From Desulfatiglandales bacterium (GTDB lineage Bacteria > Desulfobacterota > DSM-4660 > Desulfatiglandales > Desulfatiglandaceae): a stretch of DNA of 64,000 nt. The stretch lies in contig OY762721.1 in assembly GCA_963666345.1 (NCBI GenBank), positions 2,016,001 through 2,080,000 on the forward strand. The letters run 5' to 3'. The translations under genes were made by a program, and so were the position numbers. The notes beneath the pieces were generated by a model. It worked only from the letters and a program-made list of their open reading frames with translations, was not told the DNA's origin and searched no databases. Within the stretch, counting starts at the first letter, position 1. The number at the start of each line of letters is the position of its first letter. Below, in pieces: positions 2,353 through 59,833 of the stretch.

Positions 2353-2597
2353 CGGAAGCGGACCAGCACAGTTTCCTCTCACAGAGTCCACAGAGCACAC
2401 AGAGAAAAGGCCATGGCTCTTCTACAACAGCATTTCCCTTCGCCACTTGAATCCTCGACCCCTCGGACCCTTGAACCCTGCTCTTTTTAACCGCCCGCTT
2501 CGCTTGACAAAAGCGGATAACTACGGATGGTATTTTTTACTCTCCCGATGCCGGCAGAGTAAAAGCCTCGTTTGCTTCGCAAAAGGTGCCTGGTTGT

Positions 2598-2684: not shown

Positions 2685-2829
2685 CCTCAAGGCATTTCCA
2701 CTTGAACCCTAGACTCCTCGAATCCTTGGACCCTTCTCTTTAAACCCTTTTTCACCTTTCTCGCCCACTAATAACAGTACCCTTGTTTTCTCAGGTTCAC
2801 CCCTCGGACCCTCGGACCCTCGGACCCTC

Positions 2830-2887
2830 GAAACCGGAAACCAGCTGCGAAGCAGTGGGCCTGAGCGAAGCGTAGCGTAGCAAAGAA
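2830..2887 (-). repeat. Family A 56-bp mini-element
   Basis: Reverse complement resembles TTTGCTCCGCTTACGCTTCGCTCAGTCCCACTGCTTCGCAGCGGGTTCCCGGTTTC. Confidence 0.85.
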
Positions 2888-4821: not shown

Positions 4822-4860
4822 CTTGAAAAACGGGCAGGTCAATATGTCACACCCGGTTTC

Positions 4861-4916
4861 TTTGCTCCGCTTGTGCTTTGCTCAGTCCCACTGCTTCGCA
4901 GCGGGTTCCCGGTTTC
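4861..4916 (+). repeat. Family A 56-bp mini-element
   Basis: Matches 48504 and 50623 copies with few mismatches. Confidence 0.9.
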
Positions 4917-4951
4917 AGGTATTAGACACCTTGGAACCTCGACCCGTTCAA

Positions 4952-5299: not shown

Positions 5300-5310
5300 T
5301 CCTCTGTTAA

Positions 5311-7457
5311 TTAGTGCACATCCGGAAACGGATCATTTCCGGATGTTGCTTTCAGCCCTGCCACATTCAGACGGCCAAGCCTGTTAAACCGAGCGTACAG
5401 CCCGGCCCTCTGCATAAGCTCCTCGTGATTTCCGCTCTCCATTATCCTGCCCCGGTCCATCACGAAGATCCTGTCCGCCTTTCTGATTGTCGCCATTCTG
5501 TGTGCCACAATAATGGTCGTCCTGGAGCGGGTCATATGGTTTACGGCCTCCTGGATAAGCCGCTCCGTCTCAGGGTCCACGCTCGAAGTCGCCTCATCCA
5601 GTATCAGCACCCCGGGGTCTCCGGCAAGGGCCCTTGCAAAGGAGAGAAGCTGCCTCTGCCCGGCGGAGATGCTCGCCCCTTCTTCTCCCACCTCATGGCC
5701 GAGACCCTGCGGCAGCCTCTTTATAAACCCTGCCGCGTTTGCCTTAACCACGGCCCTTTGAAGAGCGCCTCGATCGATCCCGCTCCTTCCAAGCAGTATG
5801 TTATCCTGAAGGCTGCCCGCAAATATGAAGACATCCTGAAGCACCAGGCTTATCGAGTCTCTAAGCTTTTCCTTCGGCCACATCCTCAGATCGACCCGGT
5901 CCAGGCTTATTCTGCCTTGATCCGGATCATGGAAGCGTTCAAGAAGGCTTATAAGGGTGGTCTTTCCGGATCCCGTAGCACCCACTATCGCGACCGTTTC
6001 CCCCGGTTTTACCTCAAATGAGACGTCATCTATCACCTTCCGCCCTTTTTCATATGAAAACGAGACCCTGTCAAATATCACGTGACCTTCGCTTTTCCCG
6101 GGCATAACAGGGTTTACCGGCTCAGGGATCTCCTCTCTGTGATCCATGAATTCAAAGATCCGCTCGGTAGAAGCCATGGCCGACTGCATGATGTTGTATT
6201 TCTCCGATATGTCCCTTATCGGTTTAAAGAACATCTGTATATAGCTTATAAATGCCACCAGGGTCCCGAGGGTGATCTGCTCCGATACGACCCGCCCCCC
6301 GCCCTTCCAGATAATGAGGGCCACGGCAAATGAGGAGAAAAGTTCCATAAGGGGCATAAAAACGGCAAACACCCGTATCTGCTTCATCCCTGCCAGGTAG
6401 TTTTCCCTGCTTATGGACCTGAAAGCCGCATACTGCGACTCCTCCTGCGCGAAAAGCTGTATTACCCTCATCCCTTTATCCTTTCCTGAATAAAGGAGTT
6501 TATCTTTGCAACCGTGGTTCTCAGTTCGCGAAACGCCTCCCTGGCCAACCTGCTGAACAGGAGGGTAAGTGCGAAAATAAAGGGAACAAGGGCCATACAG
6601 ATAAGCGCAAGGCCGATATTTAGATAGAAAAGAACGGAAAGGATACCCAGAAGGAGAAAAAAATCCTTGAAAAGGGTAATAAGCACCGACTTGAACATCT
6701 CGTTCAGGTTTTCCACGTCGTTTGTCACGCGGGTGACGAGCCTTCCCACCGGGTGCCTGTTAAAAAAAGAAAGAGACTGGGAAAGGATCCTGTCAAAGAG
6801 CTTAAGCCTTATATCATGCATCACCCTCTGACCTATGAATTCAAGTGTGTAATGTTCGGCATAGCCGAATGCGAAAGAAAAAAAGATGAAAGAAAAAAAG
6901 ATGAAGGCGACAAAAGAAACTCCTCTTACATCCCCGCCCCTTATATCAAGCACCTTATCCCTTTCAAGACCATCCATAAGCTCAAACGGGATGAGAAAGG
7001 AGCCGTCATGCATTTTGCGGCATTTATCTCTTTTATCCGGCCCGATGCCTGAATAAAAGGCATCCGGCCCGGCCCTGTAAAACCTTTCACTCCCTATTAT
7101 GCCGCGGCTTTTAAACCTGCTTAGTTCCGCGGGATCGATCTTTCTCATATCCTCATGGGAAATGAAATCGACGGACTCCGCCTTTATCAGAAGATCGTCA
7201 TATTTTTCAACCGTCAGGCCTTCTCCCCCCTTATCCGGTTGAACCATATACCAGGATGAGATTATATACCTGTCTATGGCGATCTTTGCCAGATAGGGCG
7301 ATGCCAGATCGAAGATGGTGATGAAAAGGGAAAGTGAAAGCCCCAGCAGGATCCGCTTCTTATAGGGAAACGCGTGTTTTGCAAGCCTTTTTAAAAGCGA
7401 AAGGTTATAGGGCCTTCCAAGCTCCCCTTCCTCCATATAGCCGTATTCCCCGTACAT
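5311..7457 (-). pseudogene. ABC exporter (TMD+NBD), split by a 1-nt frameshift at ~6470 (real or sequencing error)
   Basis: ORFs 6468-7457 and 5311-6471 join as IQERIKG/MRVIQLF; Walker A GATGSGKT, ISAGQRQ. Confidence 0.8.
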
Positions 7458-9241: not shown

Positions 9242-9467
9242 ATTCTTATCAAGCCGCCGCCTTTTTTATCAGGCACTTATCTTATACCACCGGGCTTTAA
9301 ACGCACAAGCGCCGACGCCCGGATAAAACTCAAACACCAATTACTTCATCGACTGCTACGGCAAAAAAAACATAAAAGATCTTCCGCCCTTATGTTGCCT
9401 TTGCCCTTGGCCCCTAGACCCCTGGAATCCTTGGACCCTCGCATCTTTACATCCTGGCAACCCATTT

Positions 9468-10866: not shown

Positions 10867-11957
10867 AGGGGGACGCCCATGATTTTATGCTTTTCTCATT
10901 CCATAAGGGTTAAACGTTCGTCATTCGCAAGACCGGCACCTCGCTCTAGCGCACGACTTACCGCAGGCTGAACAAGGCCCAGCCTTCTCCCTACCTCTGT
11001 ACCGGACATTCCCAATTCCCTGACCGCCCAGTAGCATACAAGACTTCTTGCTCTAACCCTCTCCGGCTTTTTACTCGGCCTCAGAATTTCTTCGATATCT
11101 ATTTCCAATAATTCCGATACCCGCTCAATAACTTTATCAAAATCGTACCCCCGGCTTTTTAGCTCATACCGCCTCTCAAATTTTTCATCCTGCTCCCTCA
11201 GCACCGATTCCACAAACCCACTGTCACCAAGCATCCGCTCATCGCTCTTGAAGAGCACTCCCTGCCGACGCAGATCTTTCAACTCCTCCCAACCCCCTGA
11301 ACTTCTAATCAAACCTCCGCCTATTAAATCATTTCTCTTTCCCAGGGCAACGCCGGCCTCCACAAATCTTCTGTATTCCCTTCGAGCAAGAAATTCACGA
11401 TCACCAAACAACCGCAAGACATATTTGGTATCCTGCCACTCATTCTTATATTTTCCCAATATAAAACCGTGCCCGCAAAAACCGTATCGGTCCAGCTCAA
11501 TCATAGACGATACAATCTGTGCCCGCAGGGGATTCAGATGGATGTAACGGACAAGCTCCAAAAGATAGGAATCTTCCTGGCAAAGAATTGATTTATAACG
11601 ATTCTGAAACAGGTGCCCATGTCTTTTATATTTTTTATTAAAGGTTACAGCATATCCCGTAAGCAGTCTTCTCATTATTCCTGCAATAGGCAGATTGCCT
11701 GTTCTCAAAAGCAGATGAAAATGATTCGGCATTAACGCCCATGCAAAACAGGACGTCGCCGTAGCAGTCAGAATAGATCCCAGCCGGTCAATGAACCCTT
11801 TTCGGTCTGCCTGATCACGGAAGATCCTTCGATTTTCAATTCCTCGACATATGACATGGTGAAGAGCACCGGATGCATCTATACGGGCTTGACGGGGCAT
11901 GATTTTCCTCCTCAAAAAAAATTTTTAAGAAAAGCATAAAATCATGGGCGTCCCCCT
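10867..11957 (-). mobile_element. HUH/Y1 (RAYT-like) transposase element bounded by perfect 29-bp inverted repeats
   Basis: AGGGGGACGCCCATGATTTTATGCTTTTC at 10867-10895 and its exact reverse complement at 11929-11957. Confidence 0.85.
10896..11900 (-). CDS. REP-associated-type tyrosine transposase with C-terminal HTH
   Basis: MPRQAR...HHVICRG, LMPNHFHLL (HUH), GHLFQNRYKS, RYIHLNP; C-terminal DnaA-C-like HTH; ATG at 11900. Confidence 0.92.
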   Translation of the reverse strand: MPRQARIDASGALHHVICRGIENRRIFRDQADRKGFIDRLGSILTATATSCFAWALMPNHFHLLLRTGNLPIAGIMRRLLTGYAVTFNKKYKRHGHLFQNRYKSILCQEDSYLLELVRYIHLNPLRAQIVSSMIELDRYGFCGHGFILGKYKNEWQDTKYVLRLFGDREFLARREYRRFVEAGVALGKRNDLIGGGLIRSSGGWEELKDLRRQGVLFKSDERMLGDSGFVESVLREQDEKFERRYELKSRGYDFDKVIERVSELLEIDIEEILRPSKKPERVRARSLVCYWAVRELGMSGTEVGRRLGLVQPAVSRALERGAGLANDERLTLME

Positions 11958-11997
11958 TTTTGGTTAAAAAAAGGGTTTTCAGTTTTTATCGGTGGTA

Positions 11998-12741
11998 TCA
12001 GTAGTTGGAGATGGTGATGGAGCCCTTTTTGTCCTTTTTTACCTTGAGGGTCTTCTTCCTGTACCTGAAAAGCTTGGTGCTTTTTCTCGACTCCGGGCTG
12101 AGGTCAACAACATATTTTCCGGGGACCGCAAAATTGAGGTTCTGTCCGTCCACTATCTGAAAGGTAGCCACCCCTATTACCTCACCCCGCATGTTTATGA
12201 CCGGGCTTCCGCTCGAGCCCTTTGAGATGGGTGCCGAGATCTGGAAAATGTCCTCTTTTTTATGAATCGTGCGAAGGGCGGATACTATGCCCTCCGTCAC
12301 AGTCTTTTCAAGGCCCATCGGGCTTCCCAGAACCATGATTTTCTCGGCTGCAAGCGGCAATTCATCGCTTATCTCCACCCACCTGACGGCCCCTTCAGGT
12401 ATGTCAACCTTCACCTTTATGAGATCGACGGCACGGTTTTCAGCCAGGGCCGATGAGATGGGGTATGTTTTCCCATCGCTCGTCCTCACCTCCGCCTTGT
12501 AGACATTCTTGAACACGTGATAATTGGTTATGAGATGGCCCTTGCGGTTAACGAAAAATCCGGTCGCGGACCCCGCGATCTTGTCCTCGGAATTGTAATT
12601 GATGATGGTGACAACCGCGGGCTGTATCCTTTGCACAAGCTCGGGCAGACTCACCTCGGCATGGGCCGGGGCAAAAGCAGCAAGAAGCAGAAGAGCGTTA
12701 AGGAGGACAAAAGATATTCTTTTTGAAAAAGACCGTTCCAT
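11998..12741 (-). CDS. Exported trypsin-like (S1C) serine protease without PDZ
   Basis: Signal peptide; TNYHV, DL, GSSGSP catalytic triad motifs. Confidence 0.9.
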   Translation of the reverse strand: MERSFSKRISFVLLNALLLLAAFAPAHAEVSLPELVQRIQPAVVTIINYNSEDKIAGSATGFFVNRKGHLITNYHVFKNVYKAEVRTSDGKTYPISSALAENRAVDLIKVKVDIPEGAVRWVEISDELPLAAEKIMVLGSPMGLEKTVTEGIVSALRTIHKKEDIFQISAPISKGSSGSPVINMRGEVIGVATFQIVDGQNLNFAVPGKYVVDLSPESRKSTKLFRYRKKTLKVKKDKKGSITISNY

Positions 12742-12900
12742 ACCACAATTTCCCTATTGTTTGAAAAAGATGTTAAAATCTGAGACTCCCCTTCCCATTT
12801 GCTGAGAACCCGGCAGGCTCATGCCGCCTTCCCGGAAGATTACCCATTATCCGCTTATCTCATGAATCCCCATCTTTTTCAATGACAATAGACAGGGTTC

Positions 12901-12945
12901 TTTGCTTCGCTCAGTCCCACTGCTTCGGAGCGGGTTCCCGGTTTC
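12901..12945 (+). repeat. Family A mini-element (short variant) abutting the IS110 left end
   Basis: TTTGCTTCGCTCAGTCCCACTGCTTCGGAGCGGGTTCCCGGTTTC. Confidence 0.88.
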
Positions 12946-13043
12946 AAGATAAAATGAGAAGGCCGATCTCCCACGAGCTGTGATATGATCACGCTCAAAC
13001 CTTTAACGCAGTCAAATTGCTGCAATAAGAAAGGAGACCGGCC

Positions 13044-14096
13044 ATGAGCAAACATATCACAATTGGGATGGATTTGGGAGACCGAAATCACATTGTTGTT
13101 GTATTGGACCCTGATGGTCAGGAACTCGGGTGCTTTGAATTGATCAATAAGAAAGTGTCATTGAAACGGTTTTTTGAGCGGTACTTTGGAGCGACGGTGG
13201 CTATTGAGGCAGGCACACACTCACCTTGGATCAGTCGTTTACTGGAGCAGATGGGTTTTCAGGTATACGTGGGTAATCCACGAAAGTTACGAATGATATG
13301 GGACAGTACCGACAAAAGCGATGAAAGAGACGCCAGGATGTTGGCGATGGTATGCCGTTTGGAGCCGAAGCTTCTGTGGCCGATACGGCATCGTGGTATG
13401 AAATCTCATAGCGATCTGGAGATAAGTAAGGCACGCAATATGCTGGTTCAGACTCGCACGAAGCTGATCAATCATGTACGCTCAGTGGTCAAAGGGGTTG
13501 GAGAGAGGTTACCAAGCTGCAGCGCAGCCAGTTTTTGCAGAAGGGTAGTTGATTTTCTGCCCGAAGAACTGCTTTGTGCGTTGATGCCGTTGATTGATAC
13601 CATCAGTGATGTTACGGGCAGGATCCGGGAGATAGACAAGCGGATCGATGAGTTGTCTTTGGAACAATATCCGGAGGCTCAGACACTGCAACAGATTAAT
13701 GGAGTCGGTCCGGTGACGGCTCTAGCCTATGTGTTAACGCTGGAAGACCCTGGTCGTTTTAAAAAAAGCCGTATGGTAGGAGCGTATCTGGGTCTGACGC
13801 CGCGTCGGGACCAGTCGGGGAATACGGACAAGCAGCTTAGAATCACCAAGGCGGGCAATGCGTATTTGCGCAAGTTGTTGGTAGGCTGTGCCCATTACAT
13901 CATCGGGCCGTTTGGCCCTGACAGCAATCTGAGGCGTCACGGAATGATTATTGCGGCCCGTGGAGGCAAAAACGCCCGCAAACGGGCAGCGGTGGCTGTG
14001 GCGCGCAAACTAGCTGTATTAATGCATCGGCTGTGGGTCAGTGGGCAGGCTTATGAACCGCTGTATGTTACAAGGGAAATCAAAAAGGCGGCATAG
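13044..14096 (+). CDS. IS110 family transposase/recombinase
   Basis: RuvC-like DEDD (GMDLG, IEAG, KSDERDA), GVGPVTA, GLTPRRDQSG, AVARKLA. Confidence 0.96.
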   Translation: MSKHITIGMDLGDRNHIVVVLDPDGQELGCFELINKKVSLKRFFERYFGATVAIEAGTHSPWISRLLEQMGFQVYVGNPRKLRMIWDSTDKSDERDARMLAMVCRLEPKLLWPIRHRGMKSHSDLEISKARNMLVQTRTKLINHVRSVVKGVGERLPSCSAASFCRRVVDFLPEELLCALMPLIDTISDVTGRIREIDKRIDELSLEQYPEAQTLQQINGVGPVTALAYVLTLEDPGRFKKSRMVGAYLGLTPRRDQSGNTDKQLRITKAGNAYLRKLLVGCAHYIIGPFGPDSNLRRHGMIIAARGGKNARKRAAVAVARKLAVLMHRLWVSGQAYEPLYVTREIKKAA

Positions 14097-14164
14097 AAAC
14101 AAGGCAGTATATTGTCATAAGGCAGTCAGGGTTATGTTGACAATTTCTTTAAAGAGTCTTTGAC

Positions 14165-14330
14165 GTCTGGTCCGGGTGACTGCGGCCGAACCCTTGCACC
14201 GGCCAATGTACCGTTGGCCAAAAAAGAGTGCGAGTTCAAGATAGCAGCACCCACCGACTGATTTTACCATGCACCGGGCCAAAGGTAAGGCCCTAAAAAA
14301 GAGTGCGAATGGAAGTGTGACGGTCAGGGC
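14165..14330 (+). ncRNA. Putative bridge/seek RNA of the IS1111-type element
   Basis: Two tandem stem-loops with a shared scaffold (TGCACC..GGCC..GGCC..AAAAAAGAGTGCGA); loops carry target- and donor-matching segments; boundaries approximate. Confidence 0.8.
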
Positions 14331-14829
14331 TCGAAAGGAAAAAGGATGTCCGTGAAGCGGACCTCTTGACTTGCCTTCTCATGGAAGGGTCCAAGGGGTC
14401 CAGGGGCCAGCTGAACCGCTGTCGAAGAAAAAGCATGTCCTGTCTCTATGCCCTCTGTGGTCTCTGTGAGAAACAAAAGGCATTTGGACTTCAGGCCCCA
14501 CTGATACTGAAACCGCTGATAGCCCTTTGCGAAGCAAAAAATCTTTTTATCCTTAGTTATCAAGCGAAGCGGGCGGCAAATAAAACAGGGGCACTGTTAT
14601 TTGTTATTCGTTATTGGCGGGCAAGAAAAGCGAGACCGTGCCCCTCTATGTCCTGCCTTGTCCCTCCATATCGTTCCGATATTCATAGGTATTGCTACTG
14701 AAAGCCCATAGGTTATTTTCTATAAGAAACTTTGATGATTATTTTGAATAGTTTCTTTTATAAAAGAAACTATTGACATTTTTGCTGATTATGATAAGTT
14801 TTTGCCATAACCAAAAGAGAAGCAAAAAG

Positions 14830-16041
14830 ATGGAAACTTTACTTCATAAAAGAAACTTATATATAGACAAGGTCCGCCCCTTTATTGACAAGCCGGTGAT
14901 CAAAGTGATCACAGGCATGCGCAGGACGGGAAAAAGCTGTTTACTCAAGCTGATCATCGAAGAGATGCAAATTTCTGAAAACAGCAAGCTGTACATAAAC
15001 AAAGAGTCGCTGGATTATGATTTCATTCAGGACTACGGTGAGCTTCACCGTCATGTAAAAAAATACTTTTCAGCCGTTGAGGGGAAAAAATATCTCTTTG
15101 TCGATGAAATACAGGAAATAGAGGGATGGGAAAAGGCCGTAACTTCTCTTTTCAATGCTGGAGACTACGATATTTACATCACCGGATCCAACGCGCATCT
15201 CCTTTCGTCCGAGATCGCGACACTGATCGCGGGCCGGTATATTGAAATACCTGTCTATTCTCTGAGTTTTGAAGAATTTTTAATGTTCCGGCAAAAAAAG
15301 CAGGAAAAAGGACATGAAGAATTCTTAACATACCTTTGGGCAGGCGGCTTTCCTGCAATTCATCATTTCGATTTTAACCGGGAGGTCGTATATCAGTATA
15401 TCAATTCAATCTACGATACCATCCTCTTAAAGGACGTGATAAGAAGAAACAACGTCAGGAATGTCACCCTTCTTGAAAACATCACCCGGTACCTGTTTCA
15501 GAATATAGGTAATATTTTTACCGCCAAGAAGGTGTCGGATTATCTTAAATCCCAGAAACTGAAAATCGGCGTCGATACGGTGCAGAAGTATATTTCATAC
15601 CTTATGTCGACTTTTGCCGTATATAAGGTTCCCCGGTTTGACATAAAAGGTAAACGCCTGCTGGAACTGCATGAAAAATATTACCTTGGAGACATAGCCC
15701 TTCGAAATGCGCTTTTCGGATATCGTGAGGGAGATATCTCAGGTCTGCTCGAAAATATTGTCTTCCTTGAACTCAAGCGAAGAGGCTACGATGTCCATAT
15801 AGGAAAATTGGGAGAACGGGAGATTGACTTTATCGCGGAAAAAGAGCACCGGAAAATTTATGTTCAGGTGGCCTATCTTCTGTCATCACAGGAAACCATT
15901 GAAAGGGAGTTTTCCGCTTTGAGATCTGTCAGGGACAATTATCAGAAATATGTTATCAGCATGGACTCCGTATTCGGAAAAGACATTGAAGGCATCCACC
16001 GGATTAATCTGGTTGATTTCCTGTTAAACCCCGACATATAG
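14830..16041 (+). CDS. AAA_14 ATPase with DUF4143 domain
   Basis: GMRRTGKS, FVDEIQ, ITGSNA, GGFP, C-terminal EIDFIA...YVQV; ATG at 14830 preferred. Confidence 0.9.
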   Translation: METLLHKRNLYIDKVRPFIDKPVIKVITGMRRTGKSCLLKLIIEEMQISENSKLYINKESLDYDFIQDYGELHRHVKKYFSAVEGKKYLFVDEIQEIEGWEKAVTSLFNAGDYDIYITGSNAHLLSSEIATLIAGRYIEIPVYSLSFEEFLMFRQKKQEKGHEEFLTYLWAGGFPAIHHFDFNREVVYQYINSIYDTILLKDVIRRNNVRNVTLLENITRYLFQNIGNIFTAKKVSDYLKSQKLKIGVDTVQKYISYLMSTFAVYKVPRFDIKGKRLLELHEKYYLGDIALRNALFGYREGDISGLLENIVFLELKRRGYDVHIGKLGEREIDFIAEKEHRKIYVQVAYLLSSQETIEREFSALRSVRDNYQKYVISMDSVFGKDIEGIHRINLVDFLLNPDI

Positions 16042-16107
16042 GCGCTGTTTCATTGAAAAAACATCCGCCATCCCTGGCCGTCCACGTTTATCCTGCTGCA
16101 GTTGGCA

Positions 16108-16136
16108 GAAAAGCATAAAATCATGGGCGTCCCCCT
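16108..16136 (+). repeat. Solo copy of the 29-bp Y1-transposase end repeat
   Basis: Identical to 11929-11957. Confidence 0.92.
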
Positions 16137-16283
16137 TTTTACGGCACCGGAAGAGCAGAAAATATTTTCATCCTGTTTTGTCAAGCGAAGCGGGCAGGCT
16201 GTTCCGGAATAATCAAAACATCTGTATATCTCATTTCACATGTGTAAAAATAAGACTTTACAGAGACCAGGCGCGGGGATCAG

Positions 16284-17174: not shown

Positions 17175-17424
17175 GGGGGTAAAAGGACAGGGTCCGGGAA
17201 GCCCAGGGGTCAAGGGTTCCAGGATGGCGATAGGACAAAGGTTCCTATCTCGCCTTTCCCGCTTTTCCCGCCTCGGCGTAAGGCCTTTAAAAGAGGTTGT
17301 CAACAGCCTTGAAATGCCTGATAATGCCGGAATCGCAGGAAAAAAATCGCCCTGGAGCTGATCATGGAGCATCTATGTAAGATTTTCAATGCAAGATTTT
17401 TCTCTTTAAAGGACGGTGTTCTAA

Positions 17425-17452
17425 AAAAGCATAAAATCATGGTCGTCCCCCT
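17425..17452 (+). repeat. Solo copy of the 29-bp repeat (1 mismatch over 28 nt)
   Basis: AAAAGCATAAAATCATGGTCGTCCCCCT. Confidence 0.88.
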
Positions 17453-17482
17453 CGGGTGGGCATGGAGGTTTCTTAAAGGGAT

Positions 17483-18343
17483 ATGCTGCCAAGGATTAAT
17501 ATCGGAGTAATGAGCACGTACAACCTATGTTACCTGCTCGGGATTCTCATCGGCTGGGTGATGTTCGTTGCCGCCGAAGAGGATATATATAATTGTGAGA
17601 GCCGACATATTAATATGAAAACCGTTTTTCTCGCCTCAATCGCCTATCTTGTGGTGGTGATCGTATGCATTCAGGGGGCAAACTACTTTCATTTTATTTT
17701 TGATCATATCCCGGCCGCCGCAAGAAAAAAACTCACATGGAAGGATATCATCTTCCCCGATCTTATGAGGACGGTTAAGGTGCTTTACGGAGCGATTTTT
17801 TTCTACCCGGTCGCGATCTTCATCGTCTCAAAGGTGCTCAAAAAGAAAGACTTTCTCGACTACCTGAGCAGAAAGGGGTTTATCCTCTTTTTCATACTGG
17901 GATTTGCCAGGCTTGGATGCTTCGCAAACGGATGCTGCTACGGGATCCGCTCCGACCTGTTCGGGATAAGATTTCCAATGGGCTCGGCCGTCTCTGGCGA
18001 GCATATGAGAAGAGGGCTTACCTACGGGTTCGTGCCGCCCCCTTCCCTTCCGGTAATACCCACCCAGATCATTTCGGCGGCCGTTATTTTCGCGCTCTCT
18101 TTTTTCTGCTGGAGATCCTACAGAAAAGAAAAAAACAGAACGCTTTTTTTCAATTATGTTCTCTATTACGCGATATTCAGGTTTCTCATAGAGTTCATAA
18201 GGGATGACATAGACAGGGCCTACTGGTTAGGGATATCGGCTTCACAGTGGATATCCATACTCATTATGATATGCTTTCTGGTATATTATGGGGTTAAAAA
18301 GAGAGGGTCCGAGGGGTCGAGGGGCCAAGTGAAAACACCTTGA
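17483..18343 (+). CDS. Lgt-family (prolipoprotein diacylglyceryl transferase-like) membrane protein
   Basis: RLGCFANGCCYG, PTQI, RFLIEFIR.D, SQWIS. Confidence 0.85.
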   Translation: MLPRINIGVMSTYNLCYLLGILIGWVMFVAAEEDIYNCESRHINMKTVFLASIAYLVVVIVCIQGANYFHFIFDHIPAAARKKLTWKDIIFPDLMRTVKVLYGAIFFYPVAIFIVSKVLKKKDFLDYLSRKGFILFFILGFARLGCFANGCCYGIRSDLFGIRFPMGSAVSGEHMRRGLTYGFVPPPSLPVIPTQIISAAVIFALSFFCWRSYRKEKNRTLFFNYVLYYAIFRFLIEFIRDDIDRAYWLGISASQWISILIMICFLVYYGVKKRGSEGSRGQVKTP

Positions 18344-22613: not shown

Positions 22614-22662
22614 AATATTACCCTGTCTTAAAGTTGAGGAATTCGTAAAAAGGCATAATTGA

Positions 22663-22787
22663 GACGGCAAAGTAAAAAGCTCCAAATGCAAGGCTTGCGA
22701 ATCTTGAGGAATGAGGCGTACTTACAGTACGCCGCAATGACGAAAGATGAAGCATAACGCAGCAGTTGGACTTTTTACAAAGCCGTC
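22663..22787 (+). mobile_element. 125-bp MITE-like element (family G), copy 1
   Basis: Imperfect ~20-bp terminal IRs GACGGC...GTAAAAAG / CTTTTTAC...GCCGTC; copies at 30161 and 52760. Confidence 0.82.
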
Positions 22788-23745: not shown

Positions 23746-24345
23746 TTAACTCTGGAAGCTGATGTTGGAGGAGTACCTGTCCATCACATAAGTGAGCAGG
23801 CCTCCTATTATTATGCTTCCGATCGTAAGAGGCAGCAGGGCAAGGGCCACAATCGGAATTTTCAGATCCATCTGAAGAAATATGTTATTCATGATGATTG
23901 CACCCACATATATAAGAATGCCGAGCCTGGCAGATCTTACCGACACGGGCCGGCCCGATATAAACGATATGCCGAGAAGAGCAAAGCCTACGGCAACGCC
24001 AAAAGCGACCTCCGGCTGATAGAGCAGCCAGACTGCGTTATAACCGGCGCTGGTGATCGTTTCCATGCTCAATAAAAACATGAGTCCCACCACAAGATAA
24101 AAAAGGCTTACAAGCATAAAGAAGAAACCGCACTGCCTGCCGGTGATGCCTTCAGGAAATAGACTCAGCCCCTTTATTGCACGAGGCTGTATAAGAAAGT
24201 CCCGGAGCCTTTTAAGCGCCCCGTACCGGGACGGACAAGTTCCCATCCGGGCCATGACCAGATCGGTAAAATCATCAGGTGCGGCAACCCGGGGAGTCTT
24301 TTCAAGGATATTTATGATGTGCTGAAATTTTTCTTGTTTTTTCAA
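23746..24345 (-). CDS. Putative membrane anti-sigma factor
   Basis: N-terminal APDDFTDLVMARM plus several TM segments, downstream of ECF sigma; TTG start at 24345 inferred. Confidence 0.6.
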   Translation of the reverse strand: MKKQEKFQHIINILEKTPRVAAPDDFTDLVMARMGTCPSRYGALKRLRDFLIQPRAIKGLSLFPEGITGRQCGFFFMLVSLFYLVVGLMFLLSMETITSAGYNAVWLLYQPEVAFGVAVGFALLGISFISGRPVSVRSARLGILIYVGAIIMNNIFLQMDLKIPIVALALLPLTIGSIIIGGLLTYVMDRYSSNISFQS

Positions 24346-24354
24346 GTCGTTCTC

Positions 24355-24610
24355 GCCTTCTAATAACGAATAACAAATAACCGTGTCCTCATTTTCTTTG
24401 CCGCCCGCTTCGCTTGACAAAACAGGATCAAAACAAATGTAAAGATTTTTTACTCTGCCGACATTGGCAGAGCAAAAGCTTCGTTTGCTTCGCAAAAGGG
24501 CATAGCATCTCTATTTTGCAATGTTTGAATACTCTCACAACCAATAACAAATAACCATACTCTTGCTTTTTCAGTTTCACCCCTCGACCCCTTGAAACCG
24601 GGAACCCTTA
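24355..24610. repeat. Intergenic repeat mosaic (family C, TAACAAA 7-mers, 9-mers)
   Basis: 24401-24498 matches 2491-2587. Confidence 0.85.
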
Positions 24611-25195: not shown

Positions 25196-25440
25196 TACGT
25201 GCCCTGAGGGTCATGGCGCGCCGTGCGCCGGTAATAGAGGTTCGAGATCATTATTTAAGACGGGGTCTCAAAACCGGTAGAAATGCTCCTGGATCAGGCT
25301 CTTTGCTGAATGTGCTAAAATTATCAATGGCTTTGCAAATTTTCAACGAAATTTTTGGATCATCTCCCGATTAGTTGGTGTTAAACAGGGCCGAATAAAG
25401 GAATTCTTCTTATTTAAGCGGCTGAGAACTCGTAGGATTC

Positions 25441-25497
25441 TTCGCCCTCGCTTAGCTCAGCTCAGTCCCACTGTTTCGCAGCGGGTTCCCAGTCTCA
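25441..25497 (+). repeat. Family A mini-element (diverged)
   Basis: CTCAGTCCCACTGTTTCGCAGCGGGTTCCC core. Confidence 0.82.
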
Positions 25498-25521
25498 AGG
25501 ATTCCAGTGCTCCATTGAAAC

Positions 25522-27049: not shown

Positions 27050-27617
27050 CTGTGTGCATTATCCCAATCATTATGTTGACATCATCATGATCCTGGAAGT
27101 GAATCCCATTTATTTTACAGCCTGATGGACACAAGCTATAATCCCCAAAAATGTATAAACAAGAAAAAGCATCAGACAGCTTCGGCAAATGGGCGAGGTA
27201 AATCGCAGTAAACCTCACCTGATGTTTTACCGTCAAGAGAAGAATGGCATCTGATGACAATATTGTTCTTAATCCACTTGCTAAACCCCAAGCAAACACA
27301 GAGACTTTCCCGTATCAAATGAATGCAGCAGATGTAATGATATTTTAATATCCGCCGTATATTGGTTTATAAATATAAGAAAAAGATCCATTTACAACAA
27401 TTTGGAGTTCTATTAATATAATATTGTTAATAAATTAGTATCAATCCAGGAATGGACTATTTCCGGATGTTGCTTTCAGCCCCGCCACATTCACGGCGGG
27501 CAAGCATCAGCCATCGGCAAGTAACCAATAACCTCTCGCCCCGCTATGTCTGTTTTGTCAAACGAAGCGGGAGGTAAAAGAAAGGGGTCAAGGAGCCGAG
27601 GGGCCTAGGGTTCAAGT

Positions 27618-27860: not shown

Positions 27861-27976
27861 GCCATGATATTGGGTCAGTCGGGTTATCCTCGAACCCTTG
27901 AATCCTGGAACCCTTGGACCCTCTTCGACAACTAAGTTGGAGAAAAAGCATAATATTAAAATTCGGAGAAGCGATA

Positions 27977-28741: not shown

Positions 28742-28939
28742 ACCACGAAGAAACAGCATGTTTTTTCTCCGTGTTCTCTGTGGTTTCTGTGAGAAATAAA
28801 AGGCATTTGAACTTCAGGCCCCAACTGGTGAAACTGAAACCGCTGTTCAACTTTTGGGAAGCAAACGAAGCTTTTGATTTGCCAATGTCGGGAGAGTAAA
28901 AATATTTTTGACAACAGGTTTTAAGGGTACGTTACAGGA

Positions 28940-28968
28940 GAAACGCATAAAATCATGGGCGTCCCCCT
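28940..28968 (+). repeat. Solo copy of the 29-bp repeat (1 mismatch)
   Basis: GAAACGCATAAAATCATGGGCGTCCCCCT. Confidence 0.88.
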
Positions 28969-28991
28969 TTTTTGACTGGCAACGCAGTCGG

Positions 28992-30113: not shown

Positions 30114-30160
30114 TAGATAACACAACCCATATCGATGGACTCGTAACAAGTCATAATTGA

Positions 30161-30285
30161 GACGGCAAAGTAAAAAGTCCCAAATGCAAGGCCTGCGAAT
30201 CTTGAGGAATGAGGCGTACGTACAGTACGTCGCAATGACGAAAGATGAAGCATAACGCAGCAGTTGGACTTTTTACGAAGCCGTC
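30161..30285 (+). mobile_element. MITE-like family G, copy 2
   Basis: Near-identical to 22663-22787. Confidence 0.82.
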
Positions 30286-44524: not shown

Positions 44525-44647
44525 TCAAGCGCCGGGTCTTTCAACAGTTTTGCTTGAAGAAGCTCCGCTGAGTACGGAACCGGTCTTTCCTTCAGCCGTT
44601 ACTGTTATTGAGCTGCCGCTGGCATTGTACGAAAGGGTAAAATCGCC
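44525..44647 (-). pseudogene. Orphan pilin C-terminal cassette (40 codons + stop, no start)
   Basis: GDFTLSYNASGSSITVTAEGKTGSVLSGASSSKTVERPGA*, aligns with both pilins. Confidence 0.9.
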
Positions 44648-44656
44648 CTATTTTTT

Positions 44657-45025
44657 TTATACTGTCCCGGGTTCTGGAACGTCTCTTGATGAAGACGCGC
44701 CAGCCACTGCAGTAGTAGTTTTTCCGACAGCTTTAACAGTTATCGTATCACCATCAGTATACGTAAGCGAGAAATCACCAGCATCTGAGCCAAGAGTAGC
44801 AGTGGTATATACAACTTGGCCTGGAGTACTCCCGGATAGAACGGCCTGACCGAAATGAGCGTTGATCCTGCTTACGCCCTCAGCCAGGGCACCTTCAACC
44901 GCTTTGTTAATAGCTTCATTCCTGAGATCGAAATATTTTGGTATGGCTATAGCCGACAGCATTCCCAGAATAAGCAAGACGGTAATAAGCTCCAGAAGTG
45001 TAAAACCGTCATTTTTCATAATCAT
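44657..45025 (-). CDS. Second type IV pilin (MshA-like)
   Basis: DG|FTLLEL...IPKYFDL; paralog of 45163-45546; ATG at 45025 or 45019. Confidence 0.88.
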   Translation of the reverse strand: MIMKNDGFTLLELITVLLILGMLSAIAIPKYFDLRNEAINKAVEGALAEGVSRINAHFGQAVLSGSTPGQVVYTTATLGSDAGDFSLTYTDGDTITVKAVGKTTTAVAGASSSRDVPEPGTV

Positions 45026-45133: not shown

Positions 45134-45162
45134 CTGATAAATAATTAATCTCTCAAATTTTT

Positions 45163-45546
45163 TTATACTGTCCCTGGTGATGATACCTTTCTCGTTGAAG
45201 ACGCACCGGACACTGCAGTACCAGTTTTTCCTATAGCTTTGACAGTTATCGAAGCAGCATCAGTATACGAAAGCGTGAAATCACCGGCATCTGAGCCAAG
45301 AGTATCAGATGTATATACAACCTGGCCCGGTGTACTCCCGGCTAGAACGGCCTGACCGAAATGAGCGTTGATCCTTCCAATACCCTCTGCTAAAGCACCT
45401 TCAACGGCCTTGTTCTTTGCTTCATCCTGAAGATCGAAATATTTGGGGATTGCCACCGCAGCAAGTATGCCAAGAATGATCAGAACCGCGATGATCTCGA
45501 TCAGGGTAAAACCTTTCTGGTTTCGCTTCAAAAGCATTTTCTTCAT
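45163..45546 (-). CDS. pilA: Major type IV pilin (MshA/PilA-like)
   Basis: KG|FTLIEIIAVLIILGILAAVAIPKY; strong RBS AAGGAGG; sigma-54 promoter upstream. Confidence 0.9.
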   Translation of the reverse strand: MKKMLLKRNQKGFTLIEIIAVLIILGILAAVAIPKYFDLQDEAKNKAVEGALAEGIGRINAHFGQAVLAGSTPGQVVYTSDTLGSDAGDFTLSYTDAASITVKAIGKTGTAVSGASSTRKVSSPGTV

Positions 45547-48420: not shown

Positions 48421-48503
48421 AATGGTTGTTCTACCCTCTTAAAGATGTTCATTGTAAATAGATATCTTTATTTCGCCTGCAGTACATTTGAATAAAAGGG
48501 TTC

Positions 48504-48690
48504 TTTGCTCCGCTTACGCTTCGCTCAGTCCCACTGCTTCGCAGCGGGTTCCCGGTTTCAAGGGGTCAAGGGCTTATTTTCCAGAGATTTTATCAGTGCT
48601 TTGAGCATTCTTTCCACTTCTACGATATTACCTTTTATTGTAGCCAATGCCCCTTTTTCAATGAACCCTAAATCACCTGCCAATAATAAA
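48504..48690. pseudogene. Family A element + 3' remnant of four-helix-bundle gene
   Basis: Near-identical to 50623-50830. Confidence 0.88.
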
Positions 48691-48851
48691 TAACAAATAA
48701 CCTTGTACTACTTTCTTTTAACCGCCCGTTTCACTTGAATCCTTGAAACCTCGGATCCTTGAACCCTTTCTCGCCCACTCATAACCAATAACAAATAACC
48801 ATGTCCTTTTTTATTCAGCGGGAACCGCTGAACCCTCGACCCCTCGGACCC

Positions 48852-50579: not shown

Positions 50580-50622
50580 GGCTCATCCTTTCAAAAAATT
50601 ATAAAAAGGGGTTCAAGGATTC

Positions 50623-50678
50623 TTTGCTCCGCTTACGCTTCGCTCAGTCCCACTGCTTCGCAGCGGGTTCCCGGTTTC
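50623..50678 (+). repeat. Family A 56-bp mini-element within 9-mer repeats
   Basis: GGTTCAAGGATTC[element]AAGGATTCAAGGGGTCAAGGATTCAAGGGG. Confidence 0.9.
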
Positions 50679-50700
50679 AAGGATTCAAGGGGTCAAGGAT

Positions 50701-51072
50701 TCAAGGGGCCGAGTGTTTATTTTCTAATGATTTTATCAGTGCTTTGAGCATTCTTTCCACTTCTACGATATTACCTTTTATTGTAGCCAATGCCCCTTTT
50801 TCAATGAACCCTAAATCACCTGCCAATAATATCTGGGTTTCCACTTCACAGATTGAACCATAAGCAATATAAAGCATCCGGATGTAATCAGCCGTGGTCT
50901 TTCTTCCATATCCTTCTGCAATATTGGAAGGCACAGACACAGGCGATCTTCTTAGTTGTGAAGTAAGACCGTATTTTTCTTCCTTTGGAAATTTGCCTGT
51001 TATTCTACATATCTTTAAACAGAGTTCGTATGACTTTTGCCAGACCTTCAGATCCCTGTAAGTCTTAAGCAT
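50701..51072 (-). CDS. Four-helix bundle protein (23S rRNA-IVP/bAvd-like family)
   Basis: YRDLKVWQKS, FPKEEKYGLTSQLRR, SNIAEG, GS..E.ETQ. Confidence 0.93.
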   Translation of the reverse strand: MLKTYRDLKVWQKSYELCLKICRITGKFPKEEKYGLTSQLRRSPVSVPSNIAEGYGRKTTADYIRMLYIAYGSICEVETQILLAGDLGFIEKGALATIKGNIVEVERMLKALIKSLENKHSAP

Positions 51073-59619: not shown

Positions 59620-59833
59620 GATGATCTTTTCCCGAACAGCCGGAAGCAGGGGTTCATGCGCATGTTATCTTGAAACCCCGACCCCTTGGACCCTGTCTTC
59701 TTTAACGGTTGAGACCTGAAGGCCGAATACCTATTATTTCTTACCTGGGGAGACGATGACAAGGAGAAAAAAACGGCTCCTCCCTAATGCAACAACAATC
59801 ACTTGACATGATATCACAACATAGTATCATCTT

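Follow-up and report, generated by a model that had tools for sequence, protein, structure and literature searches.

The 64-kb stretch of Desulfatiglandales DNA analyzed here (64,000 nt of contig OY762721.1, referred to below as the window) carries an IS1111-group insertion sequence (IS) of 1,439 bp at 12949-14387 on the plus strand. We consider it very probable that this is an intact IS1111-group (IS110-family) element with a bridge RNA that reads both the target and the element's own ends. The architecture is already known: it fits the bridge RNA/seekRNA systems published in 2024 and involves no new mechanism. The evidence that carries this reading comes foremost from two relatives, inserted at sites unrelated to the one in the window, in which predicted guides at the same scaffold positions match the flanks of their own elements.

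Element boundaries and insertion site

On the left the element begins at the junction TTTCAAG|ATAAAAT, and it ends at the right-hand junction ATGGAAG|GGTCC; since the AG core stands at both junctions, it could equally be written as 12947-14385. Its non-coding ends measure 95 nt on the left and 291 nt on the right, the longer one lying downstream of the transposase gene. The parts of the element and its flanks that are needed first are as follows.

12904-12948, plus strand: left flank, a dispersed module of 45 nt with ...GGTTTCAAG at its end, the last 7 nt forming the left target half
12954-12963, plus strand: left subterminal inverted repeat ATGAGAAGGC, 10 nt, 5 nt inside the element end, 100% complementary to 14373-14382
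13044-14096, plus strand: transposase/recombinase gene, 350 amino acids, with Pfam and PDB matches
14373-14382, plus strand: right subterminal inverted repeat GCCTTCTCAT, a perfect 10-bp pair with 12954-12963, 5 nt inside the end
14388-14410, plus strand: right flank, the rest of an 8-mer tandem array (GGTCCAAG GGGTCCAG GGGCCAG), forming the right target half

Excising 12949-14387 joins ...GGTTTCAAG to GGTCCAAGG... and yields ...GGTTTCAAG GGTCCAAG GGGTCCAG GGGCCAG. The restored site aligns with uninterrupted paralogues that have the same 45-nt left module, in which ...GGTTTCAAG passes directly into the tandem array, for example GGGTCAAGG... or GGTCCGAGGGTCCGAG...; it has their layout. An earlier reading of the same DNA (the original prediction) had claimed that removal of the element restores a copy of the dispersed repeat.

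48562: uninterrupted paralogous site, ...ggtttcaag|GGGTCAAGG
24591, minus strand: uninterrupted paralogous site, ...ggtttcaag|GGGTCGAGG
2827, minus strand: uninterrupted paralogous site, ...ggtttcgag|GGTCCGAGG

Judged against these paralogous sites, rather than against an empty allele of the same locus, the insertion is sequence specific and duplication is limited to the shared core, the two junctions having only AAG/AG in common. The copy lies at the first unit boundary of an 8-bp array, beside the 45-nt dispersed module.

The 350-residue product matches PF01548 (E value of 7e-17, 62 bits) and PF02371 (E value of 3e-21, 76 bits), the two Pfam domains of IS110-family transposases, both above the cut-offs, and its PDB matches are two bridge recombinases of solved structure, ISCro4 (9t56, E value of 5.7e-11) and IS621 (8wt6, E value of 1.1e-10). 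Residues D10, E55, D93, and D96 and the Ser-Gly of GLTPRRDQSG (250-259) line up with ISCro4 in the alignment, from which we infer that D10, E55, D93, D96, and S258 are the catalytic residues of a DEDD/Ser transposase. The sequence AAGGAG at 13031-13036 is 7 nt upstream of the start codon.

A duplicated scaffold for a predicted RNA in the right end

In the right end, a single scaffold underlies two stem-loops: ...GCACCGG-hairpin-AAAAAAGAGTGCGA, then 7 nt of which the last three are AAG. The two copies are spaced 75 nt apart (repeat families D1 and D9). The original prediction had proposed such a common scaffold, and the motifs that it quoted are found where it had placed them: GAACCCTTG at 14188-14196, GTTCAAG at 14234-14240, ATTTTA at 14261-14266, and ATGGAAG at 14309-14315. 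All features listed here are on the plus strand.

14174-14252: putative target-binding stem-loop (loop 1), 79 nt, outer stem GGGTGACTGC/GCAGCACCC
14184-14195: 5' loop of the target-binding stem-loop
14196-14199 and 14228-14231: inner stem of the target-binding stem-loop, GCAC and GTGC
14232-14243: 3' loop of the target-binding stem-loop
14188-14195: predicted 5' target guide GAACCCTT, reverse complement AAGGGTTC, for top-strand pairing across the core into the right flank (AAG+GGTCC)
14234-14240: predicted 3' target guide GTTCAAG, directly after GTGCGA
14253-14324: putative donor-binding stem-loop (loop 2), outer stem ACCGAC/GACGGT, apical hairpin GGGCC/GGCCC, scaffold duplicated from loop 1
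14259-14270: 5' loop of the donor-binding stem-loop
14271-14274 and 14303-14306: GCAC and GTGC of the donor-binding stem-loop
14307-14318: 3' loop of the donor-binding stem-loop
14258-14270: 5' donor loop CTGATTTTACCAT, with partial complementarity to the core and the left element end, including ATTTTA at 14261-14266
14309-14315: predicted 3' donor guide ATGGAAG, repeating the final 7 nt of the element (14381-14387), at the scaffold position of the 3' target guide
14348-14362: third small hairpin, GTCCG-TGAAG-CGGAC, after the donor loop and before the -35 box

The fold and covariation check that had been suggested was carried out with the window element and its two relatives (L001 and L002, described below). 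The target stem-loop folds at -35.5 kcal/mol (z score of -3.88), with 0 of 200 shuffles equally stable, and the corresponding z scores are -2.77 in L002 and -2.68 in L001. In the consensus fold, all three elements retain the 9-bp outer target stem, in which two pairs are changed on both sides; over the whole fold, double-sided changes affect 5 of the 25 predicted pairs. The inner target stem covaries as well (GCAC/GTGC, GCAA/TTGC, and GGAG/CTCC), and the apical hairpin of the donor loop is kept with compensatory changes, reading GGGCC/GGCCC in the window, GGGAC/GTCCC in L002, and GAACC/GGTTC in L001. For the third hairpin, the homologous stretches in L002 and L001 differ in sequence and are still self-complementary by our reading of the alignment.

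On the minus strand of the window, a T run follows the third hairpin, giving it a terminator-like appearance; the T run is not conserved in L002.

Predicted target guides match the flanks of three elements

In the window element, the 3' target guide GTTCAAG agrees with the top-strand left flank TTTCAAG at 6 of 7 positions. On the other side of loop 1, the reverse complement of the sequence just before the inner stem, AAGGGTTC, agrees with the core plus right flank, AAGGGTCC, at 7 of 8 positions; the longest antisense match, ACCCTTG at 14190-14196, crosses the insertion point.

A genome scan yielded three loci, of which two provided usable relatives. L002, from a Desulfobacteraceae metagenome-assembled genome (MAG), encodes a transposase 67% identical to that of the window and has the left flank ...GACGCAAAG. 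L001, from an Anaerolineales MAG, has a transposase identity of 50%, the left flank ...GGTTGAG, and the right flank TAGGCCGCG. The third locus (L003, Nitratireductor sp., 2099-2878) was dropped: only residues 215 to 337 match, and it is a truncated C-terminal fragment of an IS110-family protein in a disrupted context.

The loop 1 3' guides found at the same scaffold positions are CGCAAAG in L002 and GGTTGAG in L001, and each matches its own left flank at 7 of 7 positions. When every 3' target guide was compared with every left flank, the cognate pairs scored 6/7 (window), 7/7 (L002), and 7/7 (L001), and all six non-cognate pairs scored 3 to 4 of 7. The reverse complement of the L001 5' guide, T-AG-TAGGC, matches its own core plus right flank at 7 of 8 positions. 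The matrix of 5' target guides accordingly has cognate scores of 7/8 for both the window and L001 and non-cognate scores of 3 to 4 of 8 in 4 of 4 comparisons, the window guide against the L001 flank giving 3/8. With the register fixed on the window element, L001 and L002 together match at 13 of 13 non-core positions (binomial P of 1.5e-8 at a per-position probability of 0.25). These fixed-register matches in the relatives are decisive for the significance of the guide-flank agreement. In the window and in L002, AAG is common to the left flank and the right end of the element, and in L001 AG alone is, so the core is AG, in agreement with the original prediction.

Taken together, the scaffold duplication, the stable target hairpin in three elements, the compensatory changes, and, foremost, the guide-flank matches of the relatives support the reading of the right end as a bispecific RNA. 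As far as sequence comparison can show it, the target loop reads both strands of the target.

Donor loop and post-core matches

The predicted 3' donor guide equals the right element end at 7 of 7 positions in each of the three elements. The 5' donor guide appears partly supported, and by the same comparisons the reading of the joined element ends by the donor loop is partly shown. Matches to the opposite partner occur directly after the core: ATA, next to the core on the 3' strand of loop 1, equals the first 3 nt of the element (2/3 in each of the two relatives), and in L001 the 4 nt next to the core on the 3' strand of loop 2 (TAGG) equal the right flank. These matches of 2 to 4 nt to the other partner, on the 3' strands after the core, resemble the handshake guides described for IS621 in PMC11208158, and it is possible that they are of that kind.

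A predicted promoter across the joined ends

Joining the right and left ends of the element would place two hexamers in a promoter arrangement, TTGACT-N17-TAAAAT, with 10 of 12 consensus matches.

14366-14371, plus strand: -35 hexamer TTGACT of the junction promoter
12950-12955, plus strand: -10 hexamer TAAAAT, the promoter being formed only with the ends joined

The joined ends of L002 read TTGACA-N17-TAAAAT (11/12). No sigma-70-like site was found in the linear, integrated context (12700-14700). For both families, transcription of the transposase gene and of the non-coding region from a promoter at the junction has been described (PMC11187229 and PMC11208160).

The hallmarks given for IS1111 elements in PMC11187229 are a transposase of 330 to 350 amino acids, a GL-P----S(T)G motif, and a long non-coding region downstream of the gene, and PMC11208160 gives subterminal repeats of 7 to 17 bp for the group. 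The repeats found here are perfect and 10 bp long, and the longer non-coding region is 3' of the transposase gene (291 versus 95 nt). The earlier assignment to the IS1111 type is thus upheld by the protein domains, the GL-P----SG motif, the subterminal repeats, the length of the 3' non-coding end, and the promoter motif at the junction; judged by sequence, every feature of the group that could be examined is present.

Proposed course of events

The observed anatomy, the folds, the covariation of guides and flanks in the three elements, and the motif of the junction promoter can be combined into the following model. The element would excise as a circle, a step taken from published relatives, and the joined right and left ends would build the sigma-70 promoter TTGACT-N17-TAAAAT. 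This promoter would transcribe the DEDD/Ser recombinase gene together with the 3' non-coding end, and the transcript would yield a bridge RNA (seekRNA) of ~150 nt (14174-14324). The 5' side of the target loop (GAACCCUU) would pair with the top strand, spanning the AG core and reaching into the right flank, and the 3' side (GUUCAAG) with the bottom strand of the left flank. In the donor loop, in the same register, AUGGAAG would correspond to the right end and the side containing AUUUUA would pair with the left end. By analogy with the relatives, the RNA would be made and bound by the recombinase, recombination would follow, and the element may be active at present.

The predicted guide is aimed at an 8-bp tandem repeat

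The dispersed repeat next to the element had been described as a 9-mer, which we did not confirm: its period is 8, with a unit of approximately GGRKYCNA. A periodic scan with this unit gave 30 raw matches in the window and 0 in each of 20 shuffles, and Tandem Repeats Finder reported a period of 8 or 16 at most sites and a period of 9 only locally, at 14387-14406. The window contains 15 such arrays of three to six units on either strand. Fourteen of them are in gaps between open reading frames (ORFs) of at least 150 codons; the exception overlaps the last codons of 17483-18343.

8-bp arrays from the periodic scan: 2439-2478, 2702-2733, 2796-2835, 9407-9446, 14387-14410, 17190-17221, 18305-18328, 24576-24607, 27584-27615, 27890-27921, 48546-48569, 48735-48766, 48828-48851, 50665-50712, and 59670-59693
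Dispersed module from the repeat comparison: 4853-4929, 12882-12948, 25433-25509, 48496-48572, 50615-50691, 2827-2871 (minus strand), and 24591-24607 (minus strand)

The two target guides together specify the 12-mer GTTCAAGGGTTC (GTTCAAG|GGTTC), which equals 1.5 units of a tandem of GGGTTCAA; what the guide addresses is thus the junction between consensus units in the array. With up to two mismatches, the 12-mer occurs 28 times in the window, compared to 6.5 ± 2.7 times in shuffled sequence, and 0 of 100 shuffles reached 28. This enrichment, about fourfold, together with the correspondence to 1.5 tandem units, bears out the earlier view that the RNA is programmed against the repeat. Six sites differ from the 12-mer by one mismatch. 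One is the DNA of the guide itself (14188-14199), and the remaining five are unoccupied; among them are both of the empty candidate targets that had been named beforehand.

2465-2476, minus strand: unoccupied candidate target GTTCAAGGGTCC, one mismatch, exact TTCAAGGGT, inside an 8-mer array
27892-27903, minus strand: unoccupied candidate target ATTCAAGGGTTC, one mismatch, exact TTCAAGGGT, inside an 8-mer array

The minus strand of 14188-14199, which covers the DNA of the 5' target guide and the inner stem, reads GTGCAAGGGTTC, one mismatch from the element's own guide-specified target.

Copies of the 45-nt module were located by BLAST at 48518, 50637, 4874, 2871 (minus strand), and 25452, with a partial copy at 24591 (minus strand), and no other copy in the window carries an element. 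The idea of a hairpin similar to those of repetitive extragenic palindromes (REPs) was rejected for the left module, as none of six copies folded more stably than shuffled sequence (z scores of -0.30 to +0.63). The dispersed module has a length of 45 to 77 nt, with GGGTTCCCGGTTTCAAG at its end, and in most cases an 8-mer array follows.

Landing on an 8-bp tandem array makes for a somewhat unusual target class in this family. Our literature searches found no description of these 8-mer arrays or of elements that target short tandem repeats, and among publications on IS110 elements we found no paper on tandem-repeat targets, the matches to "tandem repeat" concerning cargo repeats.

Weighing the bridge RNA reading

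Several observations weigh against an intact, bispecifically guided element. The comparison comprises three elements in all, a small sample, and right-flank scoring covers the window and L001, because the L002 contig ends at the right end of its element. In an unbiased exact-match test, the right non-coding end was shuffled 500 times and scanned against the 26-nt restored site: for the window element alone, 68 of 500 shuffles gave a sense match of at least 6 nt plus an antisense match of at least 7 nt, and for L001 alone 38 of 500 were as good. Match lengths on the window element alone are thus within chance, which is why we relied on the fixed-register comparison across elements. As a control of the method, a copy of IS4321 (L004), with a protein ~25% identical to the window transposase, gave a 10-nt antisense match in its 3' non-coding end that crosses its own insertion point and was equaled by 1 of 500 shuffles; the control was half clean, in that the sense match was not directly adjacent to the insertion point. 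No Rfam 15 family was found at an E value of ≤1 in 12500-15000 and none at the gathering score across the window, although Rfam 15 may hold no IS1111 bridge RNA model.

Further points of the same kind concern the target site, the donor loop, and the promoter. The original prediction had the two guides of loop 1 jointly specify the target; the guides are present as described, but the occupied site TTTCAAGGGTCC matches the guide-specified 12-mer at only 10 of 12 positions and the window has no perfect copy of it. One copy of the element is seen in the 64 kb, leaving the site preference of this exact element without a replicate. The donor loop had been matched to the circle junction on both sides. 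Its 3' side, ATGGAAG, stood, yet this guide is invariant and so contributes no covariation; its 5' side, with ATTTTA, was borne out in part, scoring in register 10/13 for the window element, 8/13 for L002, and 4/13 for L001. The whole donor loop folds no better than shuffles (z scores of -1.44 in the window, +0.28 in L002, and +1.13 in L001). In L001, the joined-end promoter is poor (9/12).

An unlikely alternative retains the RNA-guided element and lets its specificity be set by the junction of the 45-nt module and the array, with a further feature read by protein or through structure, such that 8-mer arrays in general would not be targets. The sole observed insertion is exactly at a module/array boundary, six further module copies (one of them partial) are present in the window, and a preprint presents a target-encoded 5' stem-loop as a second layer of specificity in ISPpu10 (bioRxiv 10.64898/2026.03.19.712850). 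However, the guide fits the array-internal junction GGGTTCAA|GGGTTC better (12/12 by construction) than it fits the module end TTTCAAG (6/7), and the other module copies are all unoccupied. The module, being no more stable than shuffles in any of the six copies, does not support an ISPpu10-like hairpin.

It is improbable that the element is an immobile resident relic, its two guide-site mismatches and its weak donor loop being signs of decay and its guide-repeat match a trace of past activity. The full-length ORF with its catalytic motifs, the perfect subterminal repeats, the 10/12 junction promoter, and the strong target-loop fold speak for an intact element, in opposition to the single copy in 64 kb, the 10/12 fit of a site when five unoccupied sites fit better with one mismatch each, and the donor-loop z score of -1.44. 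Mismatches are also reportedly tolerated by IS621, which speaks against a relic. Mismatch tolerance was assessed in a screen for IS621 (PMC11208160).

That the loop-flank similarity is coincidental, with the 3' non-coding end serving as a structured untranslated region or end-recognition region and the protein choosing the target, is scarcely credible: the 68 of 500 shuffles for the window element alone and the lack of an Rfam match would permit it, but two independent relatives with different flanks agree at 13 of 13 non-core positions in register (P of ~1.5e-8), the stems show compensatory changes, and related IS1111 elements have experimental proof (PMC11187229).

Relation to known systems

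Within the bridge RNA reading, the closest described systems are those of IS1111 elements. seekRNAs were demonstrated experimentally for ISEc11, ISKpn4, ISPa11, and ISPst6 (Siddiquee et al. 2024, PMC11187229), and the element shares with these four the 3' non-coding region, the subterminal repeats with short terminal extensions, the transposase size and motif, and, by prediction, the junction promoter. As described for IS1111 seekRNAs in PMC11187229, the top-strand match precedes the bottom-strand match in the 5' to 3' direction, with an overlap between them at the insertion point; the same paper gives the guide order of IS110-type elements as the reverse of this. The predicted pieces of 79 nt and ~150 nt resemble the 82-nt short and 154-nt long seekRNAs of ISEc11 (PMC11187229). 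The target here differs in being an 8-bp tandem array and not a REP, an attC site, or the inverted repeat of a transposon, and the case for this element is made from sequence alone.

The bridge RNA system of IS621, of the IS110 group (Durrant et al. 2024, PMC11208160; Hiraizumi et al. 2024, PMC11208158), resembles the one proposed here in its DEDD plus Ser recombinase (8wt6), in the target and donor internal loops, each of which reads both strands, in the dinucleotide core, and in the promoter rebuilt at the circle junction. It differs in that its bridge RNA is in the left end, whereas here it is in the right end after the gene, where PMC11208160 predicts the bridge RNAs of 93% of catalogued IS1111 elements. 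The order of guide strands is also reversed, the subterminal repeats here are long, and the core is AG here and CT in IS621.

ISPpu9 and ISPpu10 of Pseudomonas putida are relatives reported to target REPs of their host (PMC12288879 and bioRxiv 10.64898/2026.03.19.712850). They are alike in being aimed at a short, multicopy, mostly intergenic repeat of their own host genome, and differ in that their target is a palindromic REP with a stem-loop, in contrast to the degenerate 8-bp tandem array and the 45-nt module without a significant hairpin found here.

The element thus offers a readable natural pair of bridge RNA and recombinase from a poorly sampled lineage, with predicted guides, AG core, scaffold, and junction promoter mapped to the base. 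With it, an 8-bp tandem array joins the REP, the attC site, and the transposon end among the host repeats on which such elements can land. It can serve as an extra orthologue for comparative and engineering work and in the annotation of such genomes. Reprogramming of IS1111 seekRNAs has been demonstrated (PMC11187229), and the terms "safe harbor" and "reprogrammable" in the original prediction may apply here by extension from published work on relatives.

We suggest, as a rather doubtful extension, that guides in this clade are fitted to the junction between consensus units in short, degenerate tandem arrays and not to a single unique site. At each locus, an array would in that case present several registers in which mismatches are tolerated. 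Arrays and elements might also influence one another, for instance if the bridge recombinase recombined one array with another. The guides of L002 specify a quasi-periodic site (left flank GCAAAGAC GCAAAG), which hints that the array-targeting habit may be common to relatives; in the 3.8 kb of L002, neither its predicted target nor tandem repeats were found.

Distribution and genomic setting

At least 120 protein clusters are 64 to 94% identical to the transposase, mostly on contigs of 1.1 to 2 kb, about the length of the element, and one of them bears the name "IS110 family transposase [Desulfobacterales bacterium]." The clade of IS1111-type elements close to this transposase is widespread and mostly metagenomic. 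Plasmid relatives found by tblastn, among which IS4321 and IS5075 represent plasmid-borne IS110-family elements, are at most ~34% identical and thus too distant for aligning the RNA. A blastn search of plasmids with the 3' non-coding end and its scaffold gave no match.

The L002 contig stops at the last base of its element (3829), and most close protein relatives are on element-length contigs; contigs that end at the element or have its size are to be expected if such elements are multicopy and break assemblies. About 50 nt downstream of the L001 element, at 1506-1538, a 12-nt tandem repeat, TCGACAGGCCCT, is present in 2.8 copies with 100% matches.

In the window, the element occupies a divergent gap between two genes.

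11998-12741, minus strand: trypsin-like peptidase gene
14773-16041, plus strand: AAA_14/DUF4143 ATPase gene

Other repeats in the window

Further dispersed repeats are found between genes, and the intergenic sequence of this genome has the appearance of a mosaic in which modules are used again and again.

D11, 34 nt, up to 100% identity: 11928-11961, 16107-16140, 17423-17456, and 28939-28972
D14, 78 nt, 86% identity: 14423-14500 and 28746-28823
D12, rich in AATAACAAATAACC: 24341-24394, 48661-48714, and 48759-48812
D16/D17, with an internal palindrome: 5309-5369 and 27433-27493

Three longer direct repeats are probably paralogous gene or upstream segments.

D2, 300 nt, 82% identity: 44641-44940 and 45147-45446
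D4, 152 nt, 93% identity: 22636-22787 and 30134-30285
D5, 143 nt, 92% identity: 48546-48688 and 50689-50831

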